Assembly: GCA_963663405.2 (NCBI GenBank)
Contig: CAXXSM010000036.1
Coordinates: 32,001-96,000 of the forward strand
Reading direction: 5' to 3'
DNA from: a bacterium
Lineage (GTDB): Bacteria > Hinthialibacterota > Hinthialibacteria > Hinthialibacterales > Hinthialibacteraceae
DNA length: 64,000 nt
Part shown: positions 1 to 32,063 of the stretch, one piece after another
Layout of the letters: the number at the start of each line of letters is the position of its first letter
Numbering within the stretch: the first letter of the stretch is position 1
The notes under the pieces: model-generated
Told to the model about the DNA's origin: nothing
What the model saw: only the letters and a program-made list of their open reading frames with translations
Database searches by the model: none
Position numbers and translations under genes: made by a program

Positions 1-596
1 TAGATGAGATTCTGGATTGGTATGGGGATTTCAACCATATCCGGAATGCGATTTATGAACGGATCGGTTTTTTTAATGGAAATCCTAACGTTGTAATCCC
101 CGCTAGCACGGGAATTTATGGGAAAAACGCGAATGGGAACGCCTGTACTCTTGATGTATTGGCCATACGTTCCCGCAATGGGCGTCCTCTCGAATTCAAG
201 CGGATGGTGAATGCCCGGCAGAATGAGGCCACAGATTATGGGTCCGCGTTCTCGCGAGGCATTACGATTCATACGGATTCCGCCGCCTGCATGTTTATCT
301 CTGGGACGGCGTCTATTGATGAGTCCGGAAAAACCATTCACTTGGGTGACATGAAGCGCCAAACCAAACGGACCTTTCAGAATATTGAGACGTTGTTGGA
401 TGGACTTGGCGCTGAGATGAAAGATATAGTACAGGCGACAGCATTTGTAAAATTTCCTGAAGACGCGGAAACTTTCTATCAAGTTCGCCGAGAAATGAAA
501 CTAGAAAATGTTCCTATGATCTGCACGGTAGCCGATGTATGCCGCGACGATCTTTTATTTGAATTGGATGCGACGGCGGTTGTGCCCACCCGTTGA
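1..596 (+). CDS. Rid/YjgF-family protein, tandem-domain type, 5'-truncated by the window edge
   Basis: The frame is open from position 3 (DEILDWYGDFNHIRN...PASTGI). It has FISGTASID and a C-terminal CRDDLLFELDA with the conserved Arg and Glu of Rid enzymes. Confidence 0.75.
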   Translation, partial: DEILDWYGDFNHIRNAIYERIGFFNGNPNVVIPASTGIYGKNANGNACTLDVLAIRSRNGRPLEFKRMVNARQNEATDYGSAFSRGITIHTDSAACMFISGTASIDESGKTIHLGDMKRQTKRTFQNIETLLDGLGAEMKDIVQATAFVKFPEDAETFYQVRREMKLENVPMICTVADVCRDDLLFELDATAVVPTR

Positions 597-613
597 AATA
601 GACATAGAGAGCC

Positions 614-2557
614 ATGTGGATTTTATATTCTTCTTATATTCAATGTCGAAGGAATAATCGAGCGATTCCATCCTCTTTTTTTTTAATAGCCTGGATGGTT
701 TTCGCCCCGATCGGCTTAACGTGGGCAAAGGAGGATTCCCAATCCGATCTTATTTTTGTCCAGATTCCTGCCGCTGCTGAACCGGCGCAGTCTCCTTCGG
801 ATCTGATCTTTTTACCATCCGCCCGTTATGTAGATGGCTGCCGGATTGTGTGTCTCTCTCTTACGGATTCGAACGCGGTACCCAAGAATCTGACACCGGA
901 ATTCCTTTCGGCTCAAGATCCCGCTGTCTCGTTTGATGGTGAGACGATACTCTTTGCAGGTAAAAAGAGCGCGGCGGATTCCTGGTCGATCTGGCGAATG
1001 AACCGTGATGGAAGCGGAAAAGTAGAAATCACTCCGGAATTGAATGATTGTGTCAGCCCCCTTTTTGTGGGGGGATTGTTTTATCTGAATGATGACGCTC
1101 CATCGGATCAGATTGTATTCATGAGCGGCGATCATAATTGGATCAACGAGCAGGGCTCCACGCCCGCCTATTCCCTCTATGTGAGTAACCTTGAAGGGAA
1201 AAATTGTCATCGCATCACTTTCAATCTAAGCGGCGATTTTGATCCAGATGTTCTGCCAAACGGGCGCGTCGTTTTTACCAGCTGGCAGCGGTATGGAGGC
1301 CGGTTCGCGCCTACGGGAATGTTCTCACTTCTTGAAGTGAGTATTGATGGAACTGATCTAATGCCGTTTTACGGCAATTTCGAAAAACCGGTTTTCAAGG
1401 GGATGATCCGAGTTTCCGATGGGGACCGGATCTATTTCATCGAATCGGATCGCTCAACCTGGCTGGGTGGGGGGCGGATCGCGTATGTCTCATTCCGGCG
1501 TCCTCTCCACTCTCATCATATATTATGCCAGGACGCGAATGGTCTATACCATAGCCCGTGTCCATTGCCGGATGGGGGTTTGATTGCGCCGTACAGGCCC
1601 AATAATGATGAAACGCCTTTCGGACTTTATCGAATCGATCCTGAATCAGGCGAACGCTTAGAGACCATATATCAAGATGACGCATGGCGCTGCTTGGACG
1701 CGCATGTGTTAGGTCCTCATCCACGCGTGAAAGGTCGATCGAGCGTCGTCAATTTTGAACTCGATAAGGGCGTGTTTTATTGCCTTAATACATACGAAAG
1801 CGATCGGCCAGAAGCAAAAGCGATTGAGCCGGGATCGATCGCCCGTATGCGTGTGATTGAGGGAGTTCCTCTTCTTGCCAATCAACCGCCTCTCTCTACC
1901 TATTCCGCCACGCCGTTTGGTCTGCGCCGGATTCTGGGGCAGATACCGGTTGAAGCGGATGGATCGTTCCATATTGAAGTTCCTTCCCAGACACCAATCG
2001 CATTTCAACTATTAGATAAAAACGGCATGGCGCTGATGACTCATCGCAGTTGGATTTGGGCGATGCCGAAGGAAATGCGGGGATGCGCCGGCTGTCATGA
2101 GGACCGGGAACTGGCTCCTTCCAACCTTCTTGTCAAAGCGGTGGTGAAACCACCCTATTCATTAACTCTGCCACCTGAAAAACGCCGGACAACGGATTTT
2201 AAACATAATGTAGTTCCAATTTTAAAAGAGAGATGTGTTTTATGCCATTCGGAGGGAATGTCGCCGTTCGATCTCGATTTTGAAGAACAGGAGAAACGTG
2301 AAGACGCCTATAATCCTGCGTATAAGACACTGCTCGGTAAATCGGGAGAGAGACAGTATATAATTCCCGGCGATTCGAGGGAAAGCCCTTTAGTGTGGAA
2401 CCTATTTGGAGAGAAATTGGGATCGAGTCCCTATTCAGGTATTGTTGAAATGATGCCTCCTGGAGAAGCGCTCTCCTCGCTCGAGAAACGAATCATCGTG
2501 GAATGGATTGATATCGGCGCACAATGGGATAATCGAGTCGCGTTTGAAAATAATTGA
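614..2557 (+). CDS. Hydrazine synthase alpha-subunit-like protein (TolB-like propeller, middle domain, two c-type hemes)
   Basis: N-terminal hydrophobic segment; PD40-like repeats (DPAVSFDGETILFAG, DPDVLPNGRVVFTSW); middle-domain motif ILGQIPVEADGSFHIEVP...FQLLDKNGMAL; heme motifs CAGCH and CVLCH. Confidence 0.75.
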   Translation: MWILYSSYIQCRRNNRAIPSSFFLIAWMVFAPIGLTWAKEDSQSDLIFVQIPAAAEPAQSPSDLIFLPSARYVDGCRIVCLSLTDSNAVPKNLTPEFLSAQDPAVSFDGETILFAGKKSAADSWSIWRMNRDGSGKVEITPELNDCVSPLFVGGLFYLNDDAPSDQIVFMSGDHNWINEQGSTPAYSLYVSNLEGKNCHRITFNLSGDFDPDVLPNGRVVFTSWQRYGGRFAPTGMFSLLEVSIDGTDLMPFYGNFEKPVFKGMIRVSDGDRIYFIESDRSTWLGGGRIAYVSFRRPLHSHHILCQDANGLYHSPCPLPDGGLIAPYRPNNDETPFGLYRIDPESGERLETIYQDDAWRCLDAHVLGPHPRVKGRSSVVNFELDKGVFYCLNTYESDRPEAKAIEPGSIARMRVIEGVPLLANQPPLSTYSATPFGLRRILGQIPVEADGSFHIEVPSQTPIAFQLLDKNGMALMTHRSWIWAMPKEMRGCAGCHEDRELAPSNLLVKAVVKPPYSLTLPPEKRRTTDFKHNVVPILKERCVLCHSEGMSPFDLDFEEQEKREDAYNPAYKTLLGKSGERQYIIPGDSRESPLVWNLFGEKLGSSPYSGIVEMMPPGEALSSLEKRIIVEWIDIGAQWDNRVAFENN

Positions 2558-2796
2558 AACTACGCAAATCGGCTGATCGGGATTTTCTTTGTCAGAATCA
2601 AGATAACCAGGATGTAAGGATGAGCAGGATTTTTTTCAGATTTATGAATTCATCTATTTGATGTCAGATTCTACTCAGACGATTTTATCCTGAATATCCT
2701 ATTATCTTGGCCATCCAGATTCAGACAAAGGATGAAAACAAGATCAAACTATTCCATCAAACGAGTGGATTGATTGTCCGATCTGCGTAACGTTAG
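2554..2796. mobile_element. MITE-like element with imperfect terminal inverted repeats and a TAA flanking duplication
   Basis: TACGCAAATCGG (2561-2572) and CCGATCTGCGTA (2778-2789) are 11/12 inverted. TAA lies at both 2551-2553 and 2797-2799. Confidence 0.45.
2587..2730. repeat. Imperfect palindromic repeat with 9-nt periodic GGAT/ATCC motifs (copy A)
   Basis: CTTTGTCAGAATC...GATTCAGACAAAG ends; same family as 56767-56870 and 56973-57076. Confidence 0.8.
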
Positions 2797-2818
2797 TAAA
2801 ATTGTATGAGGTACGAGT

Positions 2819-4531
2819 ATGCGCAAACAGCGCTGTTCTTTTAATAATACTATTAATTCTATTTGCTCTTCGAAATGGATGGGAATTCAGTGGAATGTGT
2901 ATCCGCCGGTCCATCTGATTATCGTTTCGATTCTTGCATTTTTCTCACTCTCGCTTGCGCAAAGCGCGGAAGAACCGAAATACCCAACCTTCACAGATGT
3001 CACTCTCAAGGCTGGGATTCATTTTCAGCACAGTATTGGCGATCATGAACTAAGCAATATTATCGAAGGCACTGGCGCGGGGTGTTCTTTTTTTGATTAC
3101 GACGGTGATTCCGATCTCGATATCTACTTAATGAATGGCACATATGTTAAGGATTTAAGCCATATTAGAGGTCGTGTGAATGAAGGGAAACTCTTCAACG
3201 CGCTCTATCGGAATAATGGAGATGGAACCTTCACTGACGTCTCGAATGAGGCTGGTGTCGCTCACCCTGGTTTTGGGATGGCTTGCGTGGCGGCGGATTA
3301 CGATAACGATGGAGATTCCGATCTGTGGATCACGAACTGGGGGCCGAATGTCTTATACCGCAATAACGGGAATGGAACCTTTACCGATGTCACTAAAGAA
3401 GCGGGCCTTGAAAGCGATCTCTGGGGGATTGGCAGCGTCTTCTTTGATTATGATAAAGATGGAAATCTTGATCTTTATGTAGGGAATTATCTGCTATACG
3501 ATCCAGACTACACCTATCACTACGCCCCGGAAAAGTATCCAGGACCGCTTTCGTATGAAGGGCAGCCTGACATTCTCTATCACAATAATGGGGATGGGAC
3601 TTTTACGGATGTGACGAAGGAAGCGGGTGTCTATAATCCGGAGGGCCGGGCGATGGGCGTTTCTTCCTGCGATATCGACAATGATGGGGATATGGATGTC
3701 TTTGTCGCGAACGATGGGATGGAAAATTATCTCTACCGCAATAATGGCGATAATACATTTACAAATATCGCGCTGGAAACGGCGACTGGCTTTGGGCAGA
3801 GCGGGGAAGCCACTTCCGCGATGGGGCCGGAATTTGGAGATTTCGACCTGGATGGTTATATTGATCTCCTCGTTCCGGATATGGGGTATTCCTGCATCTA
3901 CCGGAATACAGGTTTAGGTTTTTTTGAGGAAATGAGCGCGCGGATGGGATTGGCGGCGTCCTGTGGGCAGTATACCAGCTGGTCGGGTAATTTCTTTGAT
4001 TTCGACTGTGACGGATATCTCGATATTTTTATCGCCAATGGGGACAGTCATAAATTGGATGCGGAAGAGGATATCCTGTTGCGTAATATTAACGGTCAGC
4101 GATTCGAAGATATCTCATCCGAATGTGGACCGGATTTCCAGGATAAATTCGTCAGCCGGGGATCGGCGATTGGGGATTATGATGATGATGGAGATCTGGA
4201 TGTATTGGTTTTAAATATAAACAATCGCGCGCGGCTCCTGCGAAATGAAGGTGGAAACCGGAACCATTGGCTGAAGATCCATACAATTGGAACGATAAGC
4301 AATCGCGATGGAATTGGTACGCGAATCCGTGTCACGGTTGGAGGGAAAACCCAGACGCGTGACATTGTGAGCAGTTCCGGCTATTTATCTCAAAACGATT
4401 ACCGGGCGCATTTCGGACTTGGCCAGTACGAGAAAGTGGACACCATCGAAGTGAGATGGCCTAGTGGGAAGAAACAAGTCTTGGAAAATGTGATGGGGAA
4501 TCAAGTCTTGGTTTTAAAGGAACCTAAATAA
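2819..4531 (+). CDS. CRTAC1-family protein (FG-GAP/VCBS repeats plus ASPIC/UnbV domain); true start may be downstream
   Basis: Repeated DYDxDGDxDL and NxLYRNNGDGTFTDV motifs; C-terminal SGYLSQND...HFGLG...VRWPSG. Confidence 0.9.
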   Translation: MRKQRCSFNNTINSICSSKWMGIQWNVYPPVHLIIVSILAFFSLSLAQSAEEPKYPTFTDVTLKAGIHFQHSIGDHELSNIIEGTGAGCSFFDYDGDSDLDIYLMNGTYVKDLSHIRGRVNEGKLFNALYRNNGDGTFTDVSNEAGVAHPGFGMACVAADYDNDGDSDLWITNWGPNVLYRNNGNGTFTDVTKEAGLESDLWGIGSVFFDYDKDGNLDLYVGNYLLYDPDYTYHYAPEKYPGPLSYEGQPDILYHNNGDGTFTDVTKEAGVYNPEGRAMGVSSCDIDNDGDMDVFVANDGMENYLYRNNGDNTFTNIALETATGFGQSGEATSAMGPEFGDFDLDGYIDLLVPDMGYSCIYRNTGLGFFEEMSARMGLAASCGQYTSWSGNFFDFDCDGYLDIFIANGDSHKLDAEEDILLRNINGQRFEDISSECGPDFQDKFVSRGSAIGDYDDDGDLDVLVLNINNRARLLRNEGGNRNHWLKIHTIGTISNRDGIGTRIRVTVGGKTQTRDIVSSSGYLSQNDYRAHFGLGQYEKVDTIEVRWPSGKKQVLENVMGNQVLVLKEPK

Positions 4532-4553
4532 AGGTAGTAAAGGAAGAGTAAGA

Positions 4554-7391
4554 ATGAGCAGGCGTTTGGCGATTGTCTTATTCAGCGTGGTTTTGGCGCT
4601 TCCCATGATTGATGGACGGCGCGCGCAGTCCGCTGACCGGATATATATGGGAGAATCCATCTGCCGCCAGTGTCACCACGACGCGATAGGCAAGCGGAAT
4701 CAATTCAATCTATGGCGGACGTCCAAACACGCCAACGCCTATGCGGCTCTCGCCATGCCGGAAGCGAAAGAAATCGCTGAACTGTCCGGGATCGATGTGA
4801 ATCCATTTGACAGCAAGGTCTGCCTGGGATGTCACACCACCGCTCCAGAAACTGAAGCGTGGGAACGCGACAGCCGTTTCTACTTTGAAGATGGAATCCA
4901 ATGTGAAGCCTGTCACGGTCCTGGCAGTGGATATATGGAACTGGACGTGATGATGGACCGGGAAAAGGCGATGATGGCCGGATTGAAGATGCCCGGCGAA
5001 GAATTCTGTATGGTCTGTCATAAAGAAAAAGGATCGCACACCGCGGTCTTGCGAGTGAAAGAGTTTAATTACAAAGACGCGCTTCGGGAAATCGCTCACG
5101 CGGGGAAGGGAGGGGATCTCCCGCAGATGGAAAAACCCGCCGTGAAACTTGAATCCGGGCCGAAATATACGGGGGCGATGGTGTGTGGGAAATGTCACCA
5201 AGGCTCCATGATGGGCCATCAATACAGCCTGTGGCGTAATTCCCGCCATGCGCGCGCGTTTGCAGTTTTAGGCACGGAAAAAGGATTGAAGATCGCGCGC
5301 GATCAAGGGATCGACAATCCACAGAAAGCCTCCCAATGCTTGAAATGCCATTCCACAGGATACGGAAATCCACCGGGCCGGTTTCTGAAGAGTTTTGATA
5401 TTGCGCAAGGCGTACAGTGTGAAAGCTGTCACGGCCCCGGCAGTGAATACAGCCCGGAAGCGGTCATGACCGATCCCATCGCCTCCCACGAAGCGGGCCT
5501 TTTGAAGGTAAACCGGGAGACTTGTTTGAAATGTCATAACGAAGAAAATTTTGATTTTCCTAAACGAGTCAAGCGAATCGCGCATCCCAAACCGAAAGGA
5601 GATCGAGTCTCTCAAATCGAATACAAAACCCCCTTCAATCTTGCAATTACAAAAGATGGAGAACGTTTGTTCATCGCTTGTGAAGGATCGGATAGTGTTA
5701 TTGTTGTGAACACGGATATCCACCGCGTGGTGGCGGAGATAAAAATCGAAAACCTGCCTCACGCGGTTGTTCTATCACCCGATGAGACTCGTGTATACGC
5801 GGCTAACCGGGGAACGGACACCATTTCTGTGATTGACGCGAATACCTACGAAGTCCTCACAACAATCGCCGTGGGAGACGAGCCGCATGAGATGGCGCTC
5901 AATAATGTGGGGGATATACTCTACGTGGCCAACGCCGCGTCATACGATGTGTCTATAGTCGATCTGAAGCAAAACCGCGAGGTCAAACGCCTTTCCGCCG
6001 CGCGGGGAACCTGGGGAATTGCGCCTTCGCCTGACGGTAAGAGGCTTTTCGTTTCCAATAACCTTTCTCACTATGTCAAATTCCGTGAACCGTCTAAATC
6101 CGAGGTGACGGTGATCGACGCGGATCGAGGAGTTGTAACAGATCGAATTATGATTCCCTCCGCGAATTTGGTCCAAGGCGTCGCTGTAGCGCCGGATGAT
6201 GAATTCGCGCTTGTTACACTGATCCGGACGAAGAACCTTGTCCCCATGACCCGTGTGATGCAGGGATGGGTGATTACGAATGGAATTGGTGTCTTGTGGA
6301 AAGACGGGCGGGTTGATCAATTACTTCTCGATGAGGTAAATAATTTCTTCGCCGATCCGACCGATGTTGTCATTACGCCGGATGGGAAATACGCGTATGT
6401 CAGCGCGGGGGGGATCGATAAAGTAGCCGTTATTGATCTTGACAAAATGAAAGCCCTGTTGGCGCGATCGACCGATAAAGAGCGCGAAGCGATTTTGCCC
6501 AATCATCTTACCGCCAGTATGGAATTTACACTCAAACGAATCGCCGTTGGACGCAGCCCACGCGGCATGACAGTCTCACCGGATGGGCGTTTTGTTTATG
6601 TGGCTGACGGGCTGGATGACACAATTTCTGTAATTGATGTGGCGAAACAGGAACGTACGAGCGTTATCGATCTGGGTGGACCGAAAGAGATCACACTCAC
6701 CCGCAAAGGGGAACGAATCTTTCACAGCGCCGAAGTGACATATGGGCGCCAGTTCTCTTGTCATTCCTGCCATCCTGATGGCGGGATCGATGGCATTACA
6801 TACGATATTGAACCGGATGGAGTTGGTTTAGATCCAGTGGATAACCGAACCCTGCGCGGTATACTCGATACGGCTCCATTTAAATGGACGGGGAAGAATC
6901 CTTCTCTCAGCCGCCAATGCGGTCCGCGTCTGGCGGTCTTTTTTACACGTATCGATCCGTTTACTCCCGATCAGGTCAAAGCGCTCGATCGGTATATCTG
7001 TACGATCCCCCGGTCACCGAACCGGTATCGTGTGGGAGATGAGTTGACGCCAGCGCAGCGGCGTGGTAAAGAGATGTTTGAACGAACTCATTCCAACGCG
7101 GGACGAGAAATCCCAATCGGCAACCGCTGTAATACATGTCATCCTGCGCCGTATTTCACCAATCGAGAAGTGGCGGATGTCGGCACGAAATCCTGGTTAG
7201 ACCAGGAGGGAATCCTCGATGTGCCTCATCTCAACAATATTTATGAAACGCCTCCTTTTCTTCATGACGGCCGGGCGGAGACATTGGAAGAAATCTGGAC
7301 GCGCTTCAATCCGAATGACGAACATGGTCTTACAAATGATATGACCAAAGATCAACTCAACGATTTGGTTGAATATTTGAAAACACTTTAA
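4554..7391 (+). CDS. Decaheme cytochrome c: two c554-like tetraheme domains, YVTN beta-propeller, diheme cytochrome c peroxidase-like domain
   Basis: Signal peptide and 10 CxxCH motifs (CRQCH, CLGCH, CEACH, CMVCH, CGKCH, CLKCH, CESCH, CLKCH, CHSCH, CNTCH); YVANxxSxDVSIVD-type repeats; C-terminal VPHLNNIYETPPFLHDGRAETLEE...LVEYLKTL. Confidence 0.85.
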   Translation: MSRRLAIVLFSVVLALPMIDGRRAQSADRIYMGESICRQCHHDAIGKRNQFNLWRTSKHANAYAALAMPEAKEIAELSGIDVNPFDSKVCLGCHTTAPETEAWERDSRFYFEDGIQCEACHGPGSGYMELDVMMDREKAMMAGLKMPGEEFCMVCHKEKGSHTAVLRVKEFNYKDALREIAHAGKGGDLPQMEKPAVKLESGPKYTGAMVCGKCHQGSMMGHQYSLWRNSRHARAFAVLGTEKGLKIARDQGIDNPQKASQCLKCHSTGYGNPPGRFLKSFDIAQGVQCESCHGPGSEYSPEAVMTDPIASHEAGLLKVNRETCLKCHNEENFDFPKRVKRIAHPKPKGDRVSQIEYKTPFNLAITKDGERLFIACEGSDSVIVVNTDIHRVVAEIKIENLPHAVVLSPDETRVYAANRGTDTISVIDANTYEVLTTIAVGDEPHEMALNNVGDILYVANAASYDVSIVDLKQNREVKRLSAARGTWGIAPSPDGKRLFVSNNLSHYVKFREPSKSEVTVIDADRGVVTDRIMIPSANLVQGVAVAPDDEFALVTLIRTKNLVPMTRVMQGWVITNGIGVLWKDGRVDQLLLDEVNNFFADPTDVVITPDGKYAYVSAGGIDKVAVIDLDKMKALLARSTDKEREAILPNHLTASMEFTLKRIAVGRSPRGMTVSPDGRFVYVADGLDDTISVIDVAKQERTSVIDLGGPKEITLTRKGERIFHSAEVTYGRQFSCHSCHPDGGIDGITYDIEPDGVGLDPVDNRTLRGILDTAPFKWTGKNPSLSRQCGPRLAVFFTRIDPFTPDQVKALDRYICTIPRSPNRYRVGDELTPAQRRGKEMFERTHSNAGREIPIGNRCNTCHPAPYFTNREVADVGTKSWLDQEGILDVPHLNNIYETPPFLHDGRAETLEEIWTRFNPNDEHGLTNDMTKDQLNDLVEYLKTL

Positions 7392-7410
7392 GATATAAGG
7401 GATCCTAGAA

Positions 7411-8589
7411 ATGAAAGGTATCTTTCCAATCGTTTTGGCTGTGAGTTGTTTCTGTTTCACCGCATTTGGAGAAGAGAAAGCAGTTGAGAAGCCTATCCTT
7501 GCTGGGGAGCCGTATGTCTATACCGAGTGGGAAGCGTTCACGACTGAATCCACACACGGTGGTTTGATCAACGACCATATTTTCGGCCTGACGGCGGATG
7601 GGAACCGGTTGTGGATTGGAACCGAGAACGGCTTGGTTCTCTACGAAAATGGAAAATGGAAACATTGGACCGAAGAAGACGGCCTGCCGTGGCGGGTTGT
7701 CAGTTCCATCGCAGTCAGCCCTAAAACAGGTGATGTATGGGTCGGTATGTTCGGAGGAGGAATCGCTCGTTTCAGCGCTGGGCGCTTTGATCATTTCCAT
7801 CAGTTGAACAGTGGATTGGTCAATGATGTCGTCTACTCTCTTGATGTGGAAGGCGATAACATTTGGGTCGCCACGACCGCTGGAGTCAGTTCGTACAATA
7901 CAATCACGGGGGAGTGGGAAATCTACACCGAAAAAAACGCGCCGATGGAAGAAATCTGGTGCTACAGTCTCGACGCTACAAAAGATAAAGTGCATGTCGC
8001 CGTATGGGGCGGCGGTATTCTAGAATGGGATGTCAAAGACCGGACTTGGACCGATCATCACGATCCGGATGGGGAGATGGAGATTGATCTTTATCGTGAT
8101 GATGGCCTGATTCACATTATCACCACTTCCGCGTCTTACGTTGATAATATTCTGTGGGCTTCCACTTATTTCGGTTTAAGCCGTTACGATGGACGGCACT
8201 GGCGGGGATATATGGATCACGACAGCGGCCTCGCCAGCAGTTTCATCAACCTTGCTAAAGGACGGAGCGGAACCTGTTGTTATAATGCGACGGACTATGG
8301 ATTGGCGGTTTTAGTGGATTTTGAAACCGATACATGGGTCACTTATCTGCGCGAAACCGAAGACGCCAAAACGTGGACGGCGGAAGTGAAAATCGGGAAT
8401 GAATTGATTCGTAAAGTTCCGACGCAGCTCTCCCTTCCCAATCATTTCATCATTTGTGTAGAATTCATGGGTGATGATGTGTGGATTGGAACCGGTCACG
8501 GACTGGCGCGTGGCATTGGAACCGGTTATTGGCCTGGACTAAAGAAATCAGAGAAGACAGTTTCAGCGAAAACAACGAAGTCTGAATAA
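7411..8589 (+). CDS. Secreted beta-propeller protein (two-component regulator propeller repeats)
   Basis: Signal peptide; repeated GLxxxxVxxxxxxGxxxWxGT units (LWIGTENGL, IWVATTAGV, VWIGTGHGL). Confidence 0.75.
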   Translation: MKGIFPIVLAVSCFCFTAFGEEKAVEKPILAGEPYVYTEWEAFTTESTHGGLINDHIFGLTADGNRLWIGTENGLVLYENGKWKHWTEEDGLPWRVVSSIAVSPKTGDVWVGMFGGGIARFSAGRFDHFHQLNSGLVNDVVYSLDVEGDNIWVATTAGVSSYNTITGEWEIYTEKNAPMEEIWCYSLDATKDKVHVAVWGGGILEWDVKDRTWTDHHDPDGEMEIDLYRDDGLIHIITTSASYVDNILWASTYFGLSRYDGRHWRGYMDHDSGLASSFINLAKGRSGTCCYNATDYGLAVLVDFETDTWVTYLRETEDAKTWTAEVKIGNELIRKVPTQLSLPNHFIICVEFMGDDVWIGTGHGLARGIGTGYWPGLKKSEKTVSAKTTKSE

Positions 8590-8612
8590 AAACATACTTG
8601 TTACGAGGTGAT

Positions 8613-9992
8613 ATGATGAAACAGTTCTTCGGCGTAATCTTTCTAATAAGTGTGTTATCTGGCGCGTGGGTATGGGCGGATGATGTATCCAATCCGCCTG
8701 CGAAATCGGAAAGCGCCGGGATAGCGAATTCGACGGAACTGCCAAATTATGGGGGGACGCCGGAGGAATATGTCCCCTTTGGACATTTTACGAAACCATA
8801 CAAGCGCTTTTTCCTTGAACCGCTTTTGTATCGGGGGTATGGACGTCATATCCCCGAACCCAAGCATGTGGAAAGCGTTAAAATCGGCTTTATCGGCCCA
8901 ATCATGAAAACCGTGTCGGTCGCGACAGGCGGCGCTTCGCATGAAGAACCACTCGGCCTAAAGATGCTGCAAGGCGCCCGCCTGGCGATCGAACACGCCA
9001 ACGCCAACGGTGGCTATCGTGGATCAGGCATCCCGTATGAGTTGGTCGTTAAAAATGACAACGGCCTTTGGGGCGCGTCCGGAAGTGAGATTATCGACCT
9101 CGCTTACAAAGATAAAGTCTGGGCGATTGTTGGCACGATCGACGGCGCCAACAGCCATATCGCGATCCGCGTCGCTCTAAAGATTGAAATCCCCATGATG
9201 AACACCGGAGACACCGATCCGACGTTTATCGAGACCAATATCCCTTGGGTGTTCCGCAATATCACCGATGATCGTACGATGTGTTATTTGTTGGCCGATT
9301 TCGCATTCAAGAAGCTGGGATTGACCAAAATCGCCGCTCTCCGCGCCGGCAACCGCTATGGACGCATGAGCATTGATGAGTTCCGCGACGGCGCCCGGCG
9401 GCTTGGATTTCCATTTGCCACGGAAATGCAGTATCGATTGGGGGACACCGACTATACTACTCAACTTAAACGGATTCAGGATCTTAAACCGGACGCGGTG
9501 ATTACGTACGGCAATTCATATGAATCCGCGCTGGTTCTCAAACAAATGCGGGAGATGGGGATGGATCAATGGTATTTCGGCAGCGACCGTATGGTGACAC
9601 AGGAATTTCTCGATATTGTTGGAGACAAAGCGGGTAAAGTCGCCGCTGGTTATCCCTATAATCCCACCAGCAAGGATGATAGACACGTTCAATTTATTGA
9701 AGCGTTCAAAGAGCGCTTTGGCGCCGAACCGGAAACATACGCGGGCCATGCCTACGATGGCATCGAAATGTTGGTCCAGGCGATTGAAGAAGCGGGTTTG
9801 AACCGCGCGTTGATCCGTGACACTCTTGCGGAGATGACTAATTTTCATGGCGTCACCGGTATAAAAGAAATGGACGCGGTTTTCAGCAACCGTTCAAGCG
9901 CCTGTCTTGCGATTGTGGAGGATGGTGAATTCAAATTCTATACACGCGATCAAATTTTGGGTGAAGATTCCCTCGAATTTACGAAACGTTAG
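8613..9992 (+). CDS. Type I periplasmic binding protein (branched-chain amino acid ABC SBP family)
   Basis: ATG at 8613 after GAGG; VKIGFIGP, GARLAIEHANANGG, YAGHAYDG, FHGVTG motifs. Confidence 0.85.
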   Translation: MMKQFFGVIFLISVLSGAWVWADDVSNPPAKSESAGIANSTELPNYGGTPEEYVPFGHFTKPYKRFFLEPLLYRGYGRHIPEPKHVESVKIGFIGPIMKTVSVATGGASHEEPLGLKMLQGARLAIEHANANGGYRGSGIPYELVVKNDNGLWGASGSEIIDLAYKDKVWAIVGTIDGANSHIAIRVALKIEIPMMNTGDTDPTFIETNIPWVFRNITDDRTMCYLLADFAFKKLGLTKIAALRAGNRYGRMSIDEFRDGARRLGFPFATEMQYRLGDTDYTTQLKRIQDLKPDAVITYGNSYESALVLKQMREMGMDQWYFGSDRMVTQEFLDIVGDKAGKVAAGYPYNPTSKDDRHVQFIEAFKERFGAEPETYAGHAYDGIEMLVQAIEEAGLNRALIRDTLAEMTNFHGVTGIKEMDAVFSNRSSACLAIVEDGEFKFYTRDQILGEDSLEFTKR

Positions 9993-10007
9993 TCTTGGCA
10001 GGTCCCG

Positions 10008-11207
10008 ATGAGACGAATTGGAAAATGGCTCCGGGGGGGATGGTTTATCTTCCCCGGTTTCTTTATTTTTACTTATTTACACGTAAGTTACGCAGCCGAA
10101 AGCCTCCCATCCATTCCTCATAAACGCATGTTAGATGATCCGCTCGAGTTTACTGGCCGCGAGGGGCCGGTGGGCGATCCAATGAAGTTGGGAGAGATCC
10201 GCATCGGTTTTTTTGCGCCGGTTGATGGTTCCGATCCTGTGGGGGACGCAATGTGGAAGGGGGCGTCTCTCGCTGTCGAGGAGGCGAATCGCGCTGGAGG
10301 GTATCAACAAGTTCCATATCGGTTGATATCGCGTTGGGCGGATGATCCTTGGGGAGCGGGTTCAAAGGAGATGATCCGGTTGGTCTATGAAGATCGCGTC
10401 TGGGCGGTGATCGGCTCGATTGACGGTGATACGACTCATATCGCCGAACAAATTGTTACTAAAGCGCGTCTGCCTCTCATTTCACCCGTGTCGTCCGATC
10501 CTACGCTGACGTTCATCCGGATTCCCTGGATTTTTCGCCTGGCGCCGGACGATCGCTCGCAGGCGAACGTTCTTGTCAGCGATGGCATAATCCAGCATGG
10601 TTGCAAGCGAATCGGATTGATCACAGCGTCCAACCATGATGGACGGATCGCGGCGAAAGAATTGAAAGACGCGCTGGGAAAAAATAATATAGCGCCTGTC
10701 TGTCATCTTATTCTGCCACCGGATCCGGAATCCTTTGGGGAATTGGCGGATAAACTTCAGGCGTTTCACTGTGACACGCTGGCGCTGGCGATTCCTAGAG
10801 ATTCAATAGGACCATTGTTGAAGTCATTCAAAAATAATAATATCAAAATCCCTGTTTTTTTTCCTTGGATACCCGGCGCCGATGAAAGAGAGTTAAAAAA
10901 ACTATATGAAGGAATGTTGGTTACTATTCGTCCATTTGAAGAAGATACTCTAACAGAACAGTATTCCACGTTCCTTCTGGCCTATCAAAATCGGTTTGGG
11001 GAATCCCCTAACGCTTGCGCGGTGTATGCGTATGACGCGGTGAACATCATTGGTAAAGCCATTCAATCCCAAGGTTTGAACCGGGCGCGTATCCGCCGCG
11101 CATTGGCTGATATGAAATGTGGAGAAGGAGTGACGGGGAAAATCGTCTGGGATCATGGGGGAGGGAATCCAGGGCGCCCGTTGATCTATAAGATCACCGC
11201 CCCATGA
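10008..11207 (+). CDS. Second type I periplasmic binding protein, paralogue of the upstream gene
   Basis: IRIGFFAP, GASLAVEEANRAGG, VWAVIGSIDG, AVYAYDAV, GVTGKI motifs. Confidence 0.85.
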   Translation: MRRIGKWLRGGWFIFPGFFIFTYLHVSYAAESLPSIPHKRMLDDPLEFTGREGPVGDPMKLGEIRIGFFAPVDGSDPVGDAMWKGASLAVEEANRAGGYQQVPYRLISRWADDPWGAGSKEMIRLVYEDRVWAVIGSIDGDTTHIAEQIVTKARLPLISPVSSDPTLTFIRIPWIFRLAPDDRSQANVLVSDGIIQHGCKRIGLITASNHDGRIAAKELKDALGKNNIAPVCHLILPPDPESFGELADKLQAFHCDTLALAIPRDSIGPLLKSFKNNNIKIPVFFPWIPGADERELKKLYEGMLVTIRPFEEDTLTEQYSTFLLAYQNRFGESPNACAVYAYDAVNIIGKAIQSQGLNRARIRRALADMKCGEGVTGKIVWDHGGGNPGRPLIYKITAP

Positions 11208-11219
11208 GAAACTGTATGG

Positions 11220-12272
11220 CTAGGATTTTAGGTGTTCGTCGAAGAACGTGAGCGCGCGCTGTTCGATATAGGGACACACAACCATGCCCGTGAGCAGCAC
11301 GGCTGAATAATGGCCCGTGGGCACATAAAGTGTCTTAGGACAGCCCAGCGCTTGGCGCAGTCTCTCACCCGTTCGCCGGGGAACGGTCGCGTCCATCCGC
11401 GCGAGAATCAAAAATGTCTTCTGCGCATTGATATACGGCGCGAATCGAAGCGGTTCAGAGAGGATTTCTTCCCGGATCGCGTCTCGCAGTTCTTCCATTG
11501 TCCAACCGTTTTTTTCACGGATGGCGGTCCGGATACTGTCCAGTTTTTCAAGATTGCTTGTAGTTAAAATGGAACCGAAATCGCCACCCGCCAGCGCGAA
11601 TACATTCGCTTTCAAACGGGGTTCCACTCCCGCAAGGATAACATTCTTGATTCCTCCATAACTCACTCCGAAACTGCCCAGCGCTTCTGTGTCGACGCCT
11701 TCCTGCTGACAGAGCCAATCCAGCGCAATCCGATCCCGAATGACCGCGTCACACATTTGCTCTTCCAGACTGCTTAATTCGATCGCTTCTCCGCGCCGCG
11801 CTTTCTTTAAAAGATCGGGCGGGCGGTGTACGACGAGGCAGTGATACCCGCGCATTGAAAAACGCTGCGCGAAATGAGACGCCACCCGGTTTTTCCCACC
11901 CAAAATCGGTGAGATTAGAAGCCCCGGCGCTGATCCGTTTTCATCGCAGGGGTAATAATCTACTGTGAGAGGCTCATCACCGTTCTGGACTTGGATTTTT
12001 ACGCGGATGAATCCATCGGGATTTTTTTCCTGGGAGAGAACCGGGCAGCCGGTTGGCTGCCGGTAGCGTTCGTCCAATTCAGGAGGGCGGATTACAGGTC
12101 CAGTGTAATCCCGATCCAAACGCACGGTGGCGCATTGAAACTGCGATAAACAAAGCGCAAAGAAAAACAACCAGCGAATTGAAAATAAATTTCCCAGGAA
12201 TATCTTGCTCAAATAGGTTTTTATACGTATCATAATTAAACTTAATATAACTCGCGTTTCTGTGAGTGTCAT
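11220..12272 (-). CDS. Alpha/beta-hydrolase, probably exported; start may be internal
   Basis: Nucleophile elbow GVSYGG, D in RMDATVP, H in PTGHY. Confidence 0.75.
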   Translation of the reverse strand: MTLTETRVILSLIMIRIKTYLSKIFLGNLFSIRWLFFFALCLSQFQCATVRLDRDYTGPVIRPPELDERYRQPTGCPVLSQEKNPDGFIRVKIQVQNGDEPLTVDYYPCDENGSAPGLLISPILGGKNRVASHFAQRFSMRGYHCLVVHRPPDLLKKARRGEAIELSSLEEQMCDAVIRDRIALDWLCQQEGVDTEALGSFGVSYGGIKNVILAGVEPRLKANVFALAGGDFGSILTTSNLEKLDSIRTAIREKNGWTMEELRDAIREEILSEPLRFAPYINAQKTFLILARMDATVPRRTGERLRQALGCPKTLYVPTGHYSAVLLTGMVVCPYIEQRALTFFDEHLKS

Positions 12273-12293
12273 GAAAAATCTCTGGAGGATAGA

Positions 12294-12611
12294 ATGAAAT
12301 ATAATCGTCTAATTTTACTTTTCGCGGTAGGTTTCCTGTGTGTCTCTATGTTTGGATGCGCGGGTGGATCGAGAAGAGTCGTTCTCGATGATCAAACCAT
12401 CGCCCTGCAAATCAAAGACCAGCTCGAAGCCACCAGCGGGCCGGAAGGTCCATTTGAAATTGATGTCATTGTGGATGCTGGAGAAGTTACTTTAGATGGA
12501 GAAGTCCCAACTCCACTTGCGAAAGAAAAAGCGATCGAAATCACCCAGATCACAGAGGGTGTCAAGGATGTGAAAAGCTACTTGATCGTCCGGCAACCGT
12601 CCAACCAGTGA
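12294..12611 (+). CDS. BON-domain lipoprotein
   Basis: GGAGG RBS; lipobox-like MFGC; DDQTIALQIK...GEVTLDGEV...EGVKDVKSYL. Confidence 0.85.
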   Translation: MKYNRLILLFAVGFLCVSMFGCAGGSRRVVLDDQTIALQIKDQLEATSGPEGPFEIDVIVDAGEVTLDGEVPTPLAKEKAIEITQITEGVKDVKSYLIVRQPSNQ

Positions 12612-12628: not shown

Positions 12629-13165
12629 ATGAAGAAAACAGTGAAGGCGTCCACAGTCGAACTCGTCCAAGGGGATATCACCCAACAGGACACTGCGGCG
12701 ATCGCCAACGCGGCGAATACGTCGCTGTTAGGGGGGGGAGGCGTTGACGGCGCGATTCACCGGGCGGGTGGTCCTCAAATCCTTGAAGAATGTAAAAAAC
12801 TGAATGGCTGTAAAACCGGCGACGCCAAGATTACAACCGGTGGAAACCTGAAAGCCAAGTATGTAATCCATACCCCCGGCCCCATTTATCGAGGCGGAAC
12901 CGCTGGAGAATCGAAACTGCTCGAATCCTGCTACCGGCGTTGCCTCGAAGTGGCCGTGGAAAACGATATTGATTCAATCGCTTTTCCATCCATCAGCACG
13001 GGCGTCTATGGCTATCCCGTCAATGAAGCGGCGGAAATCGCCCTTCGAACCGTCAGAACCTTCCTGGAAAACAATCCTTCCTTACACCTTGTTCGATTTG
13101 TTCTTTTTGATAAGAAGACTTATCAGGCGTTTGTTGGTGCGATGGGAAAGGTGTGGGAAGATTAA
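12629..13165 (+). CDS. ymdB: Macrodomain O-acetyl-ADP-ribose deacetylase (YmdB-like)
   Basis: GDIT, NAANTSLLGGGGVDGAIHRAGG, SIAFPSISTGVYGYP. Confidence 0.9.
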   Translation: MKKTVKASTVELVQGDITQQDTAAIANAANTSLLGGGGVDGAIHRAGGPQILEECKKLNGCKTGDAKITTGGNLKAKYVIHTPGPIYRGGTAGESKLLESCYRRCLEVAVENDIDSIAFPSISTGVYGYPVNEAAEIALRTVRTFLENNPSLHLVRFVLFDKKTYQAFVGAMGKVWED

Positions 13166-14364: not shown

Positions 14365-15495
14365 TTATCCCGCTGGTGGTATCGTCTCCCCATCTTCCTT
14401 GTCTTTTGAAGCAATTCCTTCATCTGAGCTGTATGCTAAAGATGAATTCTGTTCTTCCAATGGGATATCCCGGAATGAAATAGGTCCTGTTGGGATGGGG
14501 GTGGGATTCCATTCGGGAGTGGATAGGATGACGGATTCCTTTTTTTTGACGGGTGTCTTGAATGAATAGGCTGCGTTTCCTGTCAGATCATTCATAAACG
14601 CAATGGCGAACGCGTCTTTTAAAATGGGAATCGGCAGGAGGAAAAACGCGCCGAATAGTGACGCGGGAATCGTCAATAAAAAAAGAACCAATTCCCGCAT
14701 GACGCCACTGACGTGAAATAGACCGATTAAGGAATACGTGAATACGCCCGTAAAAAGCGCGGCGAATAGGAAAATTATGGTTTCCGCAATTCCAATCGTG
14801 AACCGGTAATAAGCGTAGAGGATGAACTCGCCCAGCGACGCGAAAATCAGGTCGAACGCCCGTGACCAGGCTTTCATAACTCCATAATCTTGAAAGATCA
14901 TCAGCGGTACAACGATTGAATCCAGTGTTATTGAATAAAAAAATCCAAATAAAAGGATGTTGATCAAACCACCAATCCCTAGAGTGAGTAACAGCAGCAA
15001 TCCTGCTTGATCTCCTTTCATCTCCACCAACCAAGCTGAAAGAGCAAGGGCGCATATACTGAGAAAAATAAATCCCGTAAGCGCAAAGACCGCAAACGTG
15101 ATCTTCCAAACAAAATAACAAAAAACCGCATAACAATGTTTACGGAAACTGGAGAGATAATCCATTAAGCCAGTCCGGACACCGTCATAAAAAAGAATCC
15201 GTGACGCCGCCGCATAAAAGGTGGCGATGATTTTGAAAAGGATCAATCCCACAAGGAGTGTAACCGTGGCGGTAATCAAAAAAGGCAGCAGTTTCAGATT
15301 CCATATGCTGATTTGTGTTAAATCCAGATCCGCTGTGTGTTCTTCAAATTGGAGATATAGATTGATAAGGGAGAAGCCTTGCATCAAAAAATAGAGCAGG
15401 GCCATCCTCAGCCAAAAACTCAACCGGAAGGGCCGGAATAAAAGACGTGGAACCTGTCTCCACGCCCGGCGAAACGCGCCGGCGGTTGTGGTCAT
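14365..15495 (-). CDS. Integral membrane protein of unknown function
   Basis: 376-aa ORF with about 6-7 hydrophobic segments; AAGGA RBS. Confidence 0.7.
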   Translation of the reverse strand: MTTTAGAFRRAWRQVPRLLFRPFRLSFWLRMALLYFLMQGFSLINLYLQFEEHTADLDLTQISIWNLKLLPFLITATVTLLVGLILFKIIATFYAAASRILFYDGVRTGLMDYLSSFRKHCYAVFCYFVWKITFAVFALTGFIFLSICALALSAWLVEMKGDQAGLLLLLTLGIGGLINILLFGFFYSITLDSIVVPLMIFQDYGVMKAWSRAFDLIFASLGEFILYAYYRFTIGIAETIIFLFAALFTGVFTYSLIGLFHVSGVMRELVLFLLTIPASLFGAFFLLPIPILKDAFAIAFMNDLTGNAAYSFKTPVKKKESVILSTPEWNPTPIPTGPISFRDIPLEEQNSSLAYSSDEGIASKDKEDGETIPPAG

Positions 15496-30896: not shown

Positions 30897-31895
30897 CTAT
30901 TTCTCATGGTAGATCAACGCGGCGTGTCCCATCTCGATCCGGTCTCCATCTTTCAACTCCCGGCATTCATTCGCCTCCATTCGTTCGTGGTTGAGAATGG
31001 TCGCGTTGCGGTCGGGATCGTATGGGTCGGGGATGTTTTCAAGGATATATTTACCATCAAAAAATTGCAGTTTAGCTTGGTGACTCGATACGGTGGGATC
31101 GTTCAATTGAATGTGCGATAAAGGAGGACCTGGCAGACGGCCTAGTGTATACTCCGGTGTCTGGTTGACCGATCCCTGGGGACGAATCAAACGGATTTCT
31201 TTTAGCTCAGAACCACCGGCCACTTCGAACCATCCCGGCAGGATTTTCACTGTACCCGCCTGGATCGCTTCTTCTTTCGCCACTGGAGCTGTGATTTTCT
31301 GGGTATGATCGGCGACTGTCACGACCGCCGTGCTGTCAAAATGGGGAAGCGGGGAGCCGGACCAGCCCCCCAGCAGTAATACGATTAATAAAATCAATAC
31401 GACCACAACCGCTCCAATCAAGCCGATCAAGTACCAATTCGCGCCGGTTTCCTCTTCCTGTGGGGTGGATTCCTGCGTCGATTCTTCCGCTGGAACGATT
31501 GGCGCCGGCGCTGGAGTGGTTTCAACTACGGCGGGTTGCGGGGCCGGGGAAGCGTCCAGCGCCTCCCGTTTGTTTTCCATAATTAAATAGGAACTCGCCG
31601 CTTGCTCGAACGCCACGTATCCTTCAACCCGGTATCGTTTATTGAGTTCAGGATGGCGTTCGCTCTTTGAAATGATGATGATCTTATCCCCCCAATTATC
31701 CTTGAGTTCATAGGCGATCGTGTTTTCGGCTTTTCCCTTATCCCATCGCTCGATTAATCCTTCCACCGTCACGTAAGCGTTCACCAATTGGCCGTCATTG
31801 ATCTGTTTGACGATCCGTTCATTTTCTTCGCAGTGGATGGGATTAATCAGAAATATAACAAGAAATAGAAAAAAAACAGACAAAAAACCTCTCAT
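30897..31895 (-). CDS. Membrane-anchored FHA-domain protein
   Basis: Signal peptide, Pro/Ala linker, TM helix, then LGR...DPTVSSHQA...NAT...LKDGDRIEMG. Confidence 0.85.
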   Translation of the reverse strand: MRGFLSVFFLFLVIFLINPIHCEENERIVKQINDGQLVNAYVTVEGLIERWDKGKAENTIAYELKDNWGDKIIIISKSERHPELNKRYRVEGYVAFEQAASSYLIMENKREALDASPAPQPAVVETTPAPAPIVPAEESTQESTPQEEETGANWYLIGLIGAVVVVLILLIVLLLGGWSGSPLPHFDSTAVVTVADHTQKITAPVAKEEAIQAGTVKILPGWFEVAGGSELKEIRLIRPQGSVNQTPEYTLGRLPGPPLSHIQLNDPTVSSHQAKLQFFDGKYILENIPDPYDPDRNATILNHERMEANECRELKDGDRIEMGHAALIYHEK

Positions 31896-32063
31896 GAATC
31901 TCTCCTTTATTTTGTAAAAATCGCTCGAACGCTACGTCCCATTTTTCGCGCTGTTTATAAATAACAATACTTGCGCCGCCGTGTTTTTAAAATCCCTGCA
32001 TGATTCCATGTTTTTACTATGCTTTGAGATTAAATTCTGGTTAAAAAGAAAGATCCTAAGCGC

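Follow-up and report, generated by a model that had tools for sequence, protein, structure and literature searches.

Does a block of genes resembling those of hydrazine synthase (HZS), found in a bacterium outside any setting of anaerobic ammonium oxidation (anammox), encode a hydrazine synthase, and if it does not, what might it encode? The block lies in a stretch of 64,000 nucleotides (hereafter the window; contig CAXXSM010000036.1, positions 32,001 to 96,000, assembly GCA_963663405.2, family Hinthialibacteraceae). Here genes A, B, C, D, E and F occupy positions 614-11207, tightly spaced and co-oriented on the plus strand, behind a further gene, Z. An earlier note on this DNA had described an HZS-like operon without anammox context and proposed a periplasmic complex of HZS architecture with a different chemistry. 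HZS was long thought to be without relatives. By their alignments, A and C are true full-length HZS homologues and all three subunit types are present; judged by the residues special to hydrazine synthesis, which are gone, the locus is not a hydrazine synthase. Taken as a whole it is, with good confidence, best explained as one of the published non-anammox HZS-like gene clusters termed clade I (Hagglund et al. 2025, Genome Biol Evol 18:evaf244, PMC12758564), an assignment made by features and gene order. The features of the block are as follows.

1..596, plus strand: Z, 3' part of a Rid/FkbO-like gene (Pfam Ribonuc_L-PSP, 59.2 bits)
614..2557, plus strand: A, HzsA-like dihaem protein, 647 amino acids (aa), with HZS_alpha, hydrazine_alpha and 5c2v_A matches
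2819..4531, plus strand: B, CRTAC1-like exported protein, 570 aa as an open reading frame, FG-GAP_3 and UnbV_ASPIC
4554..7391, plus strand: C, whole 945-aa fusion with 10 CxxCH motifs and c554, HzsB-like and HzsC-like parts
4554..5600, plus strand: C, N-terminal part (residues 1-349), signal peptide, eight CxxCH, two tetrahaem c554-type domains
5601..6653, plus strand: C, middle part (residues 350-700), HzsB-like seven-bladed YVTN propeller
6654..7391, plus strand: C, C-terminal part (residues 701-945), HzsC-like dihaem domain of the cytochrome c peroxidase (CcP)/MauG fold
7411..8589, plus strand: D, exported single beta-propeller of Reg_prop type, 392 aa (weak Pfam Reg_prop match, 27.5 bits)
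8598..9992, plus strand: E, type-I periplasmic binding protein, 464 aa (Peripla_BP_6, 156.6 bits)
10008..11207, plus strand: F, second type-I periplasmic binding protein, 399 aa (Peripla_BP_6, 129.6 bits)

Protein A carried the haem motifs CAGCH at residue 491 and CVLCH at residue 541, matched the Pfam HZS_alpha middle domain (88.8 bits, E 3.4e-25) and aligned by phmmer with the Kuenenia alpha subunit 5c2v_A (181 bits, E 3.3e-52) in four stretches across residues 44-640. These results bear out the earlier description of an HzsA-like gene with a propeller, a middle domain and two CxxCH motifs. Identity was 26-28% to anammox HzsA and 25-28% in the comparison with Kuenenia HZS, and A is about 160 aa shorter than Kuenenia HzsA. 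Structural similarity to HZS, named in the earlier note as a check, was found in an AlphaFold2 model of A (20-row alignment; predicted local distance difference test score, pLDDT, 81.3). The best Foldseek match of this model was 5c2v_A (E 5.7e-42; TM-score by query length, TMq, 0.76; by target length, TMt, 0.65; 753 columns), and the next matches were TolB-type propellers only, at TMq 0.33-0.36. Dozens of paralogues of 700-1300 aa, about 30% identical to A over its middle part, were observed in the host genome and its relatives (up to 23 matches per relative).

The middle and C-terminal parts of C aligned with the beta subunit 5c2v_B (145 bits, E 2.3e-41, residues 357-697) and the gamma subunit 5c2v_C (59 bits, E 1.8e-15, residues 710-945), in agreement with the earlier reading of a protein, two genes on from A, that ends in a YVTN propeller and a dihaem domain. 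That reading was correct for these parts, but it overlooked eight further CxxCH motifs at residues 37, 90, 117, 152, 211, 262, 289 and 324, which belong to two c554 domains. The N-terminal part matched Pfam Cytochrome_C554 in 2 stretches (110.5 bits) and the cytochrome c554 structure 1bvb (29.6 bits); the same haem region also matched MtrC/MtrF domain II/IV (49.1 bits) and models of the decahaem proteins DmsE/OmcA. The gamma part contains haem gamma-I (CHSCH, 736-740), Trp778, Cys789 and haem gamma-II (CNTCH, 859-863). Against Pfam CCP_MauG (PF03150), C scored 27.3 bits (cut-off 25.6), none of its stretches passing alone, and matches to MauG and MbnH models were weak. A 24-row alignment of C held 154 invariant columns, all within residues 376-941, and the most conserved region was the catalytic-type gamma-I region, not the c554 wire. 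Two same-family relatives (loci L051 and L053) possessed a beta-gamma protein of 794-796 aa with only four N-terminal CxxCH motifs and one c554 domain; the beta-gamma protein of Opitutus terrae likewise has one c554 domain (PMC12758564).

The identity of the locus as a hydrazine synthase was assessed using the NCBIfam models NF052339 (alpha), NF052340 (beta), NF052341 (gamma) and NF052342 (beta-gamma fusion), which have curated equivalog cut-offs. All scores fell below them: hydrazine_alpha gave 206 bits against 800, hydrazine_beta 191 against 560, hydrazine_gamma 67 against 625 and hydrazine_BC 212 against 1250. In a maximum-likelihood tree of 63 alpha rows (a quick IQ-TREE search, midpoint-drawn), 11 anammox HzsA proteins formed one clade (Shimodaira-Hasegawa-like approximate likelihood ratio test, SH-aLRT, 100; stem 1.73). 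Window A fell within a separate 49-row clade of cluster proteins (SH-aLRT 98). The model comparison and the phylogeny that the earlier note had suggested thus both set this alpha protein apart from anammox HzsA.

Residues were aligned with HzsA, HzsB and HzsC from the locus in the complete Brocadia pituitae genome. In HZS, the proximal ligand of haem alpha-I is alpha-Tyr591, four residues past the CxxCH His. Where Brocadia reads CSGCHDGSY the window has CAGCHED--RE, its two-residue gap falling precisely on the Ser-Tyr pair. All 18 homologues in the alpha alignment read CxGCHE(D/N)--xE with the gap at the same position, and no Tyr occurred within 8 residues after the alpha-I His in any of the 47 cluster alpha proteins bearing the alpha-I motif (49 examined). 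The loss of the Tyr had been recognised in the earlier note; the Glu that it named as the substitute came from simple counting, and the alignment shows the gap instead. At the distal position of haem alpha-II, Brocadia VMHDKF aligns with window MMPPGE, such that alpha-His772, by which this haem is bis-His in HZS, is replaced by Met-Pro-Pro. This triplet was present in 23 of 45 scored sequences, with Cys-Pro-Pro, His, Ile and others read by eye among the rest; a Met ligand for haem alpha-II was for this reason rejected as a cluster-wide trait. The alpha-II haem motif itself alternates: of the 47 alpha-I-bearing proteins, 26 have CX2CH and 21 have CX4CH. The zinc-site residue alpha-Cys303 is conserved in no homologue and is variable even among anammox bacteria (PMC12758564).

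In the beta part, a conserved RTKNLVPMTRVxQGW stands at the place of the Glu-containing loop of anammox HzsB; in this blade-6 loop Brocadia PVCEAENGQ aligns with cluster PMTRVxQGW, and the Glu that in HZS binds Mg within the tunnel between subunits is gone. In the gamma part, the cluster motif RQCG(P/A)R aligns with the Cys of Brocadia DRVCG, so that the gamma-165 Cys is kept. This residue, C789, was invariant in 24 sequences; in HZS the gamma-165 Cys gives a third covalent haem link, and such a bond is putative for the cluster proteins. The place of gamma-Asp168 is taken by Arg/Leu (the window reads RQCGPR) and that of gamma-His144 by Trp778, invariant in the 24-row alignment.

We then turned to the host genome (8.4 Mb, 170 contigs, 82% complete). 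No hydrazine dehydrogenase (HDH) was found, and the sole match to the hydroxylamine oxidoreductase (HAO) family reached 70 bits, where the hydrazine_HDH model demands 900; with the genome only 82% complete, the absence of HDH is unproven. No NrfA was found in the host genome. The search for hdh and hao, together with flanks typical of a heterotroph, upholds the earlier description of the locus as being without anammox context. Thus, on the sub-cut-off NCBIfam scores, the missing residues, the failure to find HDH and the separate alpha clade, we conclude that the locus does not encode a hydrazine synthase.

The HAO-family gene encodes an octahaem cytochrome (494 aa) on host contig C92 (L136 1343-8540, minus strand), beside NrfD/DsrP-like and DsrO-like genes; two genes beyond is one for Hcp, a hydroxylamine reductase (819 bits). 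By its gene content, this region looks like a quinol-linked reductive N-oxide module. The host genome also holds a second, more distant HZS-like pair (C149:145100-149700; L135 5101-9696, minus strand), in which a gene for an 869-aa alpha-like protein (hydrazine_alpha, 37 bits) lies directly upstream of one for a 633-aa beta-gamma-like protein (hydrazine_BC, 161 bits) without N-terminal c554 domains. The two open reading frames adjoining this pair had no NCBIfam family match.

The conservation of the block was examined at two distances. Among close relatives, a full-length alpha orthologue (E < 1e-100) turned up in 16 of the 19 genomes from the same family, 1 of the 6 from the same order and 0 of the 15 more distant ones searched. 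The full Z-A-B-C-D-E-F order was retained in 12 of 15 relatives' loci, two others being cut by contig ends and one lacking F. For a wider scan of species-representative genomes, the beta-gamma alignment was reduced to two peptide patterns. This yielded 265 relatives, of which the best 80 were examined, and gene presence was counted only where the contig extended far enough on the side concerned. Along almost the entire length of C, these 80 were 51-78% identical to it. Gene A was in place in 61 of 62 loci, B immediately preceded C in 68 of 69, D followed C in 74 of 75, E was present in 63 of 64 and F in 58 of 62; Z preceded A in 28 of 59. The two haem genes thus co-occur in fixed order across many phyla, in keeping with the gene-order conservation that the earlier note had proposed to examine. 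Exceptions lacking F alone were loci L064, L124 and L132.

The deposited titles of the 80 included Aminicenantes, Thermoanaerobaculia, Sulfomarinibacter, Solibacteraceae, Omnitrophota, Gemmatimonadota, Calditrichia, Fidelibacterota, Deferribacteres, Verrucomicrobiota, Phycisphaerae, Pirellulales, Deltaproteobacteria and Cytophagia. These lineage names are the labels deposited for metagenome-assembled genomes (MAGs) and amount to about ten phylum labels. With matches below 150 bits or below 80% coverage set aside, residues conserved in at least 95% of sequences numbered 247 of 945 in C, 109 of 392 in D (76 sequences), 110 of 464 in E, 79 of 647 in A and 18 of 399 in F. B, C, D and E all exceed alpha in conservation, with D and E at 52-79% and B at 49-76% identity across phyla; alpha was read as the fastest-evolving member. 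The alignment of B had no column at or above 95%, probably as paralogous CRTAC1 copies were drawn in. We conclude that the block is a strict conserved unit, of which the propeller D is a constant member. No other neighbour was generally recurrent among the best 80 of 265 loci. The commonest, a tetratricopeptide repeat (TPR) protein, occurred in 14 of 80, followed by CN_hydrolase in 6 and sulfatase-TPR, FG-GAP-TPR and DAHP_synth_1-family proteins in 5 each; a TPR-multihaem protein adjoined the block in 4 of 80.

The borders of the operon were established by reading 14 kb upstream of the window. Complete Z encodes 322 aa (contig 31628-32596) and starts 372 nt before the window; the range 614..11207 given earlier therefore held for genes A to F and missed the start of the operon. 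Upstream of Z lie about 520 bp of intergenic DNA and then a divergent gene for a glycoside hydrolase family 42 (GH42) glycosidase. F is the final operon gene, the next gene being on the opposite strand. The GH42 gene and this opposite-strand gene thus delimit an operon Z-A-B-C-D-E-F amid ordinary heterotroph genes, and the host is an uncultured saccharolytic bacterium. Intergenic gaps from C through F were 9-20 nt, with D beginning 20 nt past C. A scan of positions 1-12600 was uninformative: promoter-like sites numbered 20 (17.0 in shuffled sequence) and terminator-like sites 12 (13.2). Among sequencing runs, none of RNA type was listed as containing this DNA; three of DNA type, from two studies, contained 0.21-0.42 of the words sampled.

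Hydrophobic N-termini were read by eye on A to F. Attachment of c-type haem depends on export, and A and C together carry 12 c-type haem motifs, so export of these proteins is required. Annotation scans of the locus and its neighbours revealed neither permease nor ATPase genes of the ATP-binding cassette (ABC) type, nor any membrane partner, within the block or next to it, and PADLOC returned zero matches for A to F.

The earlier assignment of co-oriented Rid, CRTAC1, propeller and binding-protein genes was supported by Pfam matches and coordinates alike. Z scored 57.6 bits against TIGR04444 (FkbO/Hyg5 chorismatase; cut-off 325) and is probably cytoplasmic, no N-terminal hydrophobic signal being apparent by eye. 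B comprises FG-GAP/VCBS repeats (FG-GAP_3, 169.9 bits in 6 stretches) and a C-terminal ASPIC/UnbV region (UnbV_ASPIC, 87.8 bits); its true start is likely the Met at residue 21, ahead of a hydrophobic signal. Extra CRTAC1-like paralogues were often seen near the block on the opposite strand, some of them fused to TPR domains (e.g. loci L058, L063, L066, L110 and L112).

An AlphaFold2 model of D (pLDDT 87; predicted TM-score 0.84) had as its top Foldseek matches sensor propellers from the periplasmic part of hybrid two-component systems in Bacteroides (3v9f and 4a2m; E 3e-13, TMq 0.63), and resembles one propeller of those sensor domains. Matches of D in the ESM Atlas were Reg_prop clusters only, without function. 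A predicted complex of C (350-945) with D (30-380), made from 24-row alignments of each, scored 0.01, where a value of 0.32 was the threshold, and has no bearing either way. In one Gemmatimonadales MAG (L079:12879-14030), D carried one in-frame stop in an otherwise intact cluster, for which sequencing error, pseudogene formation or recoding are possible explanations.

E and F possess the Peripla_BP_6 fold of the HAAT family of amino-acid-binding proteins (LivJ/LivK type), and permease and ATPase genes are not adjacent to them. E has a conserved extension of about 60 aa ahead of the binding-protein fold, and its nearest solved relatives were amino-acid-binding HAAT proteins (4gnr, 92.7 bits; 3td9; 4nqr). 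The residues of LivJ that contact the amino-acid backbone are S79, A100, T102, Y202 and E226 (numbering checked against the E. coli sequence). In protein E, T102 and Y150 of LivJ are retained, E226 is an Asp, S79 a Gly and Y202 an Asn/Asp. F is more divergent than E and lacks nearly all LivJ ligand-contact residues.

How does the block compare with systems already described? In the text consulted of Hagglund et al. (PMC12758564), clade I gene clusters have alpha upstream, a CRTAC1-annotated FG-GAP gene, a fused beta-gamma gene and two substrate-binding-protein genes downstream. The fusion has eight extra N-terminal haem motifs as two c554 domains, and alpha retains its two haem sites; the alpha-II motif is missing from clades II and III. 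The residues reported there are the two-residue gap at alpha-Ser590/Tyr591, Cys at gamma-165, Trp at gamma-144 and loss of the beta-loop Glu. Named members are Aquisphaera giovannonii, Thermogutta terrifontis, Novipirellula artificiosorum, Syntrophobacter fumaroxidans (alpha homologue WP_011698479.1), Paludibaculum fermentans and Opitutus terrae; several hosts are cultured and several are obligate anaerobes. Such homologues were judged unable to make hydrazine, and no function was assigned. Every defining feature named in that text was looked for and found in the window, whose host lineage is new. The named members were not among the best 80 of our 265 relatives. D and Z had no mention in the portion of the paper searched or in one supplement file, the gene order of figure 4c aside.

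The cluster type is thus already published and the conclusion of a non-hydrazine chemistry is not new. What is new here is the unit-like conservation across phyla, the constant Reg_prop propeller, the CX2CH/CX4CH alternation and the host lineage. A literature search returned no functional study of such HZS homologues, only PMC10732223 and PMC12758564, neither assigning a function in the portions consulted.

The Kuenenia stuttgartiensis HZS (5C2V/5C2W; Dietl et al. 2015) shares with the window the three subunit folds and the haem positions. The likeness extends to the alpha propeller, middle domain and C-terminal haem domain, to the seven beta blades with a blade-6 insertion and to a gamma dihaem CcP-like domain with an extra Cys. 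Unlike the Kuenenia enzyme, the window has a fused beta-gamma protein with eight further haems, a reversed gene order and four extra conserved genes, and lacks the alpha-I Tyr, gamma-Asp168, gamma-His144, the beta-loop Glu and any HDH or anammox context. Dalcin Martins et al. (2023; PMC10732223), in the text consulted, described Phycisphaerae UBA1845 MAGs in which an hzsA-like gene lies immediately upstream of a fused hzsBC-like gene. These were discussed as possible new anammox bacteria, and a broader HZS-like family with other substrates was proposed. A non-Brocadiia host and an hzsA-like gene before a fused hzsBC-like gene are common to those MAGs and the window, the two being likened by description only. 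With CcP, MauG and MbnH, C has in common the probable fold of its C-terminal 245 residues, two CxxCH motifs and an inter-haem Trp, the matches being marginal; in contrast to CcP and MauG, this domain is joined in one chain with a propeller and eight haems, and an additional Cys stands where HZS has its cross-link. At the N-terminus of C, both halves of the first 350 residues match the tetrahaem family of Nitrosomonas europaea cytochrome c554 (1BVB/1FT5). That cytochrome is a free carrier from HAO to the membrane, whereas in C it is duplicated and fused to an enzyme-like module.

The earlier note had proposed a periplasmic complex of HZS architecture with a different chemistry. The evidence supports that reading of an exported system. 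The homology and the lost residues stand as described; for complex formation, homology and synteny make it likely that A and the beta-gamma protein assemble like HZS as a periplasmic two-site haem enzyme. The particular chemistry is a more tentative matter, and as a best guess we suggest that this two-site multihaem oxidoreductase might act on a small N- or O-oxide. HZS draws external electrons at gamma-II (PMC12758564; PMC12607021). In the window protein, electrons might enter via the fused eight-haem c554 wire, in place of the separate cytochrome that feeds HZS, and pass through haem gamma-II and the intervening Trp to a putatively Cys-cross-linked haem gamma-I. A small oxidant, at a first guess NO (nitric oxide) or hydroxylamine and at a second peroxide, would be reduced there. 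The intermediate might then move to haem alpha-I, predicted to be canonically His-ligated, for a further reaction, such as hydroxylamine to ammonium in place of condensation to hydrazine. B, D, E and F could serve as accessory subunits for substrate capture or docking.

Several observations weigh against this proposal. The Asp next to haem gamma-I, implicated in HZS function in the consulted text of PMC12607021, is replaced. The inter-haem Trp is a CcP/MauG signature and points equally to peroxide or high-valent chemistry. The strict conservation of B, D, E and F is left unexplained by the NO/hydroxylamine model and by the peroxide model alike. The alpha-II distal position is not uniform among cluster members. 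Furthermore, at locus L055 A and B were not within 10 kb, C-D-E-F being there and an alpha orthologue on another contig, and locus L088 had A-B-C without D-E-F.

The inter-haem Trp makes a MauG-like chemistry a serious rival, albeit one that we hold to be rather unlikely. The gamma-like domain would then act as a dihaem CcP/MauG using Trp and high-valent iron, either in peroxide detoxification, in oxidising a substrate delivered by the binding proteins or in modifying B or D post-translationally. A Trp at the gamma-144 place is found in both CcP and MauG (PMC12758564, in the text consulted). The weak matches to the CCP_MauG, MauG and MbnH models agree with this possibility, and the Met-Pro-Pro of the window would give a higher-potential, His/Met-ligated alpha-II haem like the electron-transfer haem of CcP. 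Conversely, the Cys that cross-links haem gamma-I in HZS is retained and is, to our knowledge, not a trait of CcP or MauG. Additionally, an eight-haem wire exceeds the needs of a two-electron peroxidase, no target with a modified residue was identifiable, and several clade I hosts are obligate anaerobes (PMC12758564). A genuine hydrazine synthase in a cryptic anammox host is close to refuted. The three subunit homologues, the kept gamma-165 Cys and the HAO-family octahaem gene near NrfD/DsrP-like, DsrO-like and Hcp genes would agree with it; yet the NCBIfam scores, the four absent residues, the HAO-family score, the position of alpha outside the anammox clade, the flanking GH42 glycosidase, macro-domain and alanine racemase genes and the presence of the same cluster under about ten non-anammox phylum labels all contradict it.

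It is also very improbable that the neighbours have no common task, with the alpha-like and beta-gamma-like cytochromes acting separately and the propeller and binding proteins engaged in unrelated sensing or uptake. The lack of transporter genes or a membrane partner in the block and the one genome with alpha on a separate contig from C-D-E-F fit such a view; however, the A-B-C-D-E-F order held in 58-74 of 62-75 testable loci from distant phyla with differing flanks, the gaps are very short, and D and E are unusually conserved. We give equally little credence to an electron conduit towards an extracellular, insoluble or metal substrate in place of a small-molecule enzyme. The MtrC/MtrF and DmsE/OmcA matches and the occasional TPR-multihaem neighbour recall such conduits, but the block has no outer-membrane porin or MtrB-like gene, and the gamma-I region, not the wire, is the most conserved part of C.

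A bolder extension of the preferred small-oxide reductase, which we consider unlikely, holds that the six exported proteins could be one self-contained periplasmic machine in which the binding proteins capture a nitrogenous small molecule and the haem proteins perform the chemistry ancestral to HZS. This might take the form of NO to hydroxylamine to ammonium, or of N-O/N-N chemistry on an organic amine. If true, the module would be a living precursor of hydrazine synthesis and an unrecognised nitrogen-cycle step in sediment heterotrophs. Such clusters are the nearest kin of HZS and bear on the origin of anammox. In metagenomes, hzs-like matches risk being misread as anammox potential, an error against which residue checks and the NCBIfam cut-offs guard. 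The module joins 12 haem motifs in two proteins to four strictly co-conserved non-haem partners, and the cultured hosts named for clade I in the text consulted make it experimentally tractable.

Two minor observations concern sequences outside the block. A 2640-base contig titled Terriglobia bacterium (L016) carries an anammox-type HzsA that nested among Brocadiaceae in the alpha tree; as the contig is tiny, this HzsA may be a binning stray and not an acidobacterial gene. Past F, the window encodes a protein with a weak ABHD18-like alpha/beta-hydrolase match, a macro-domain O-acetyl-ADP-ribose deacetylase (229 bits, 12629-13165), a DUF7544 protein (14365-15495) and alanine racemase; the deacetylase and the DUF7544 protein are apparently unrelated to the operon.

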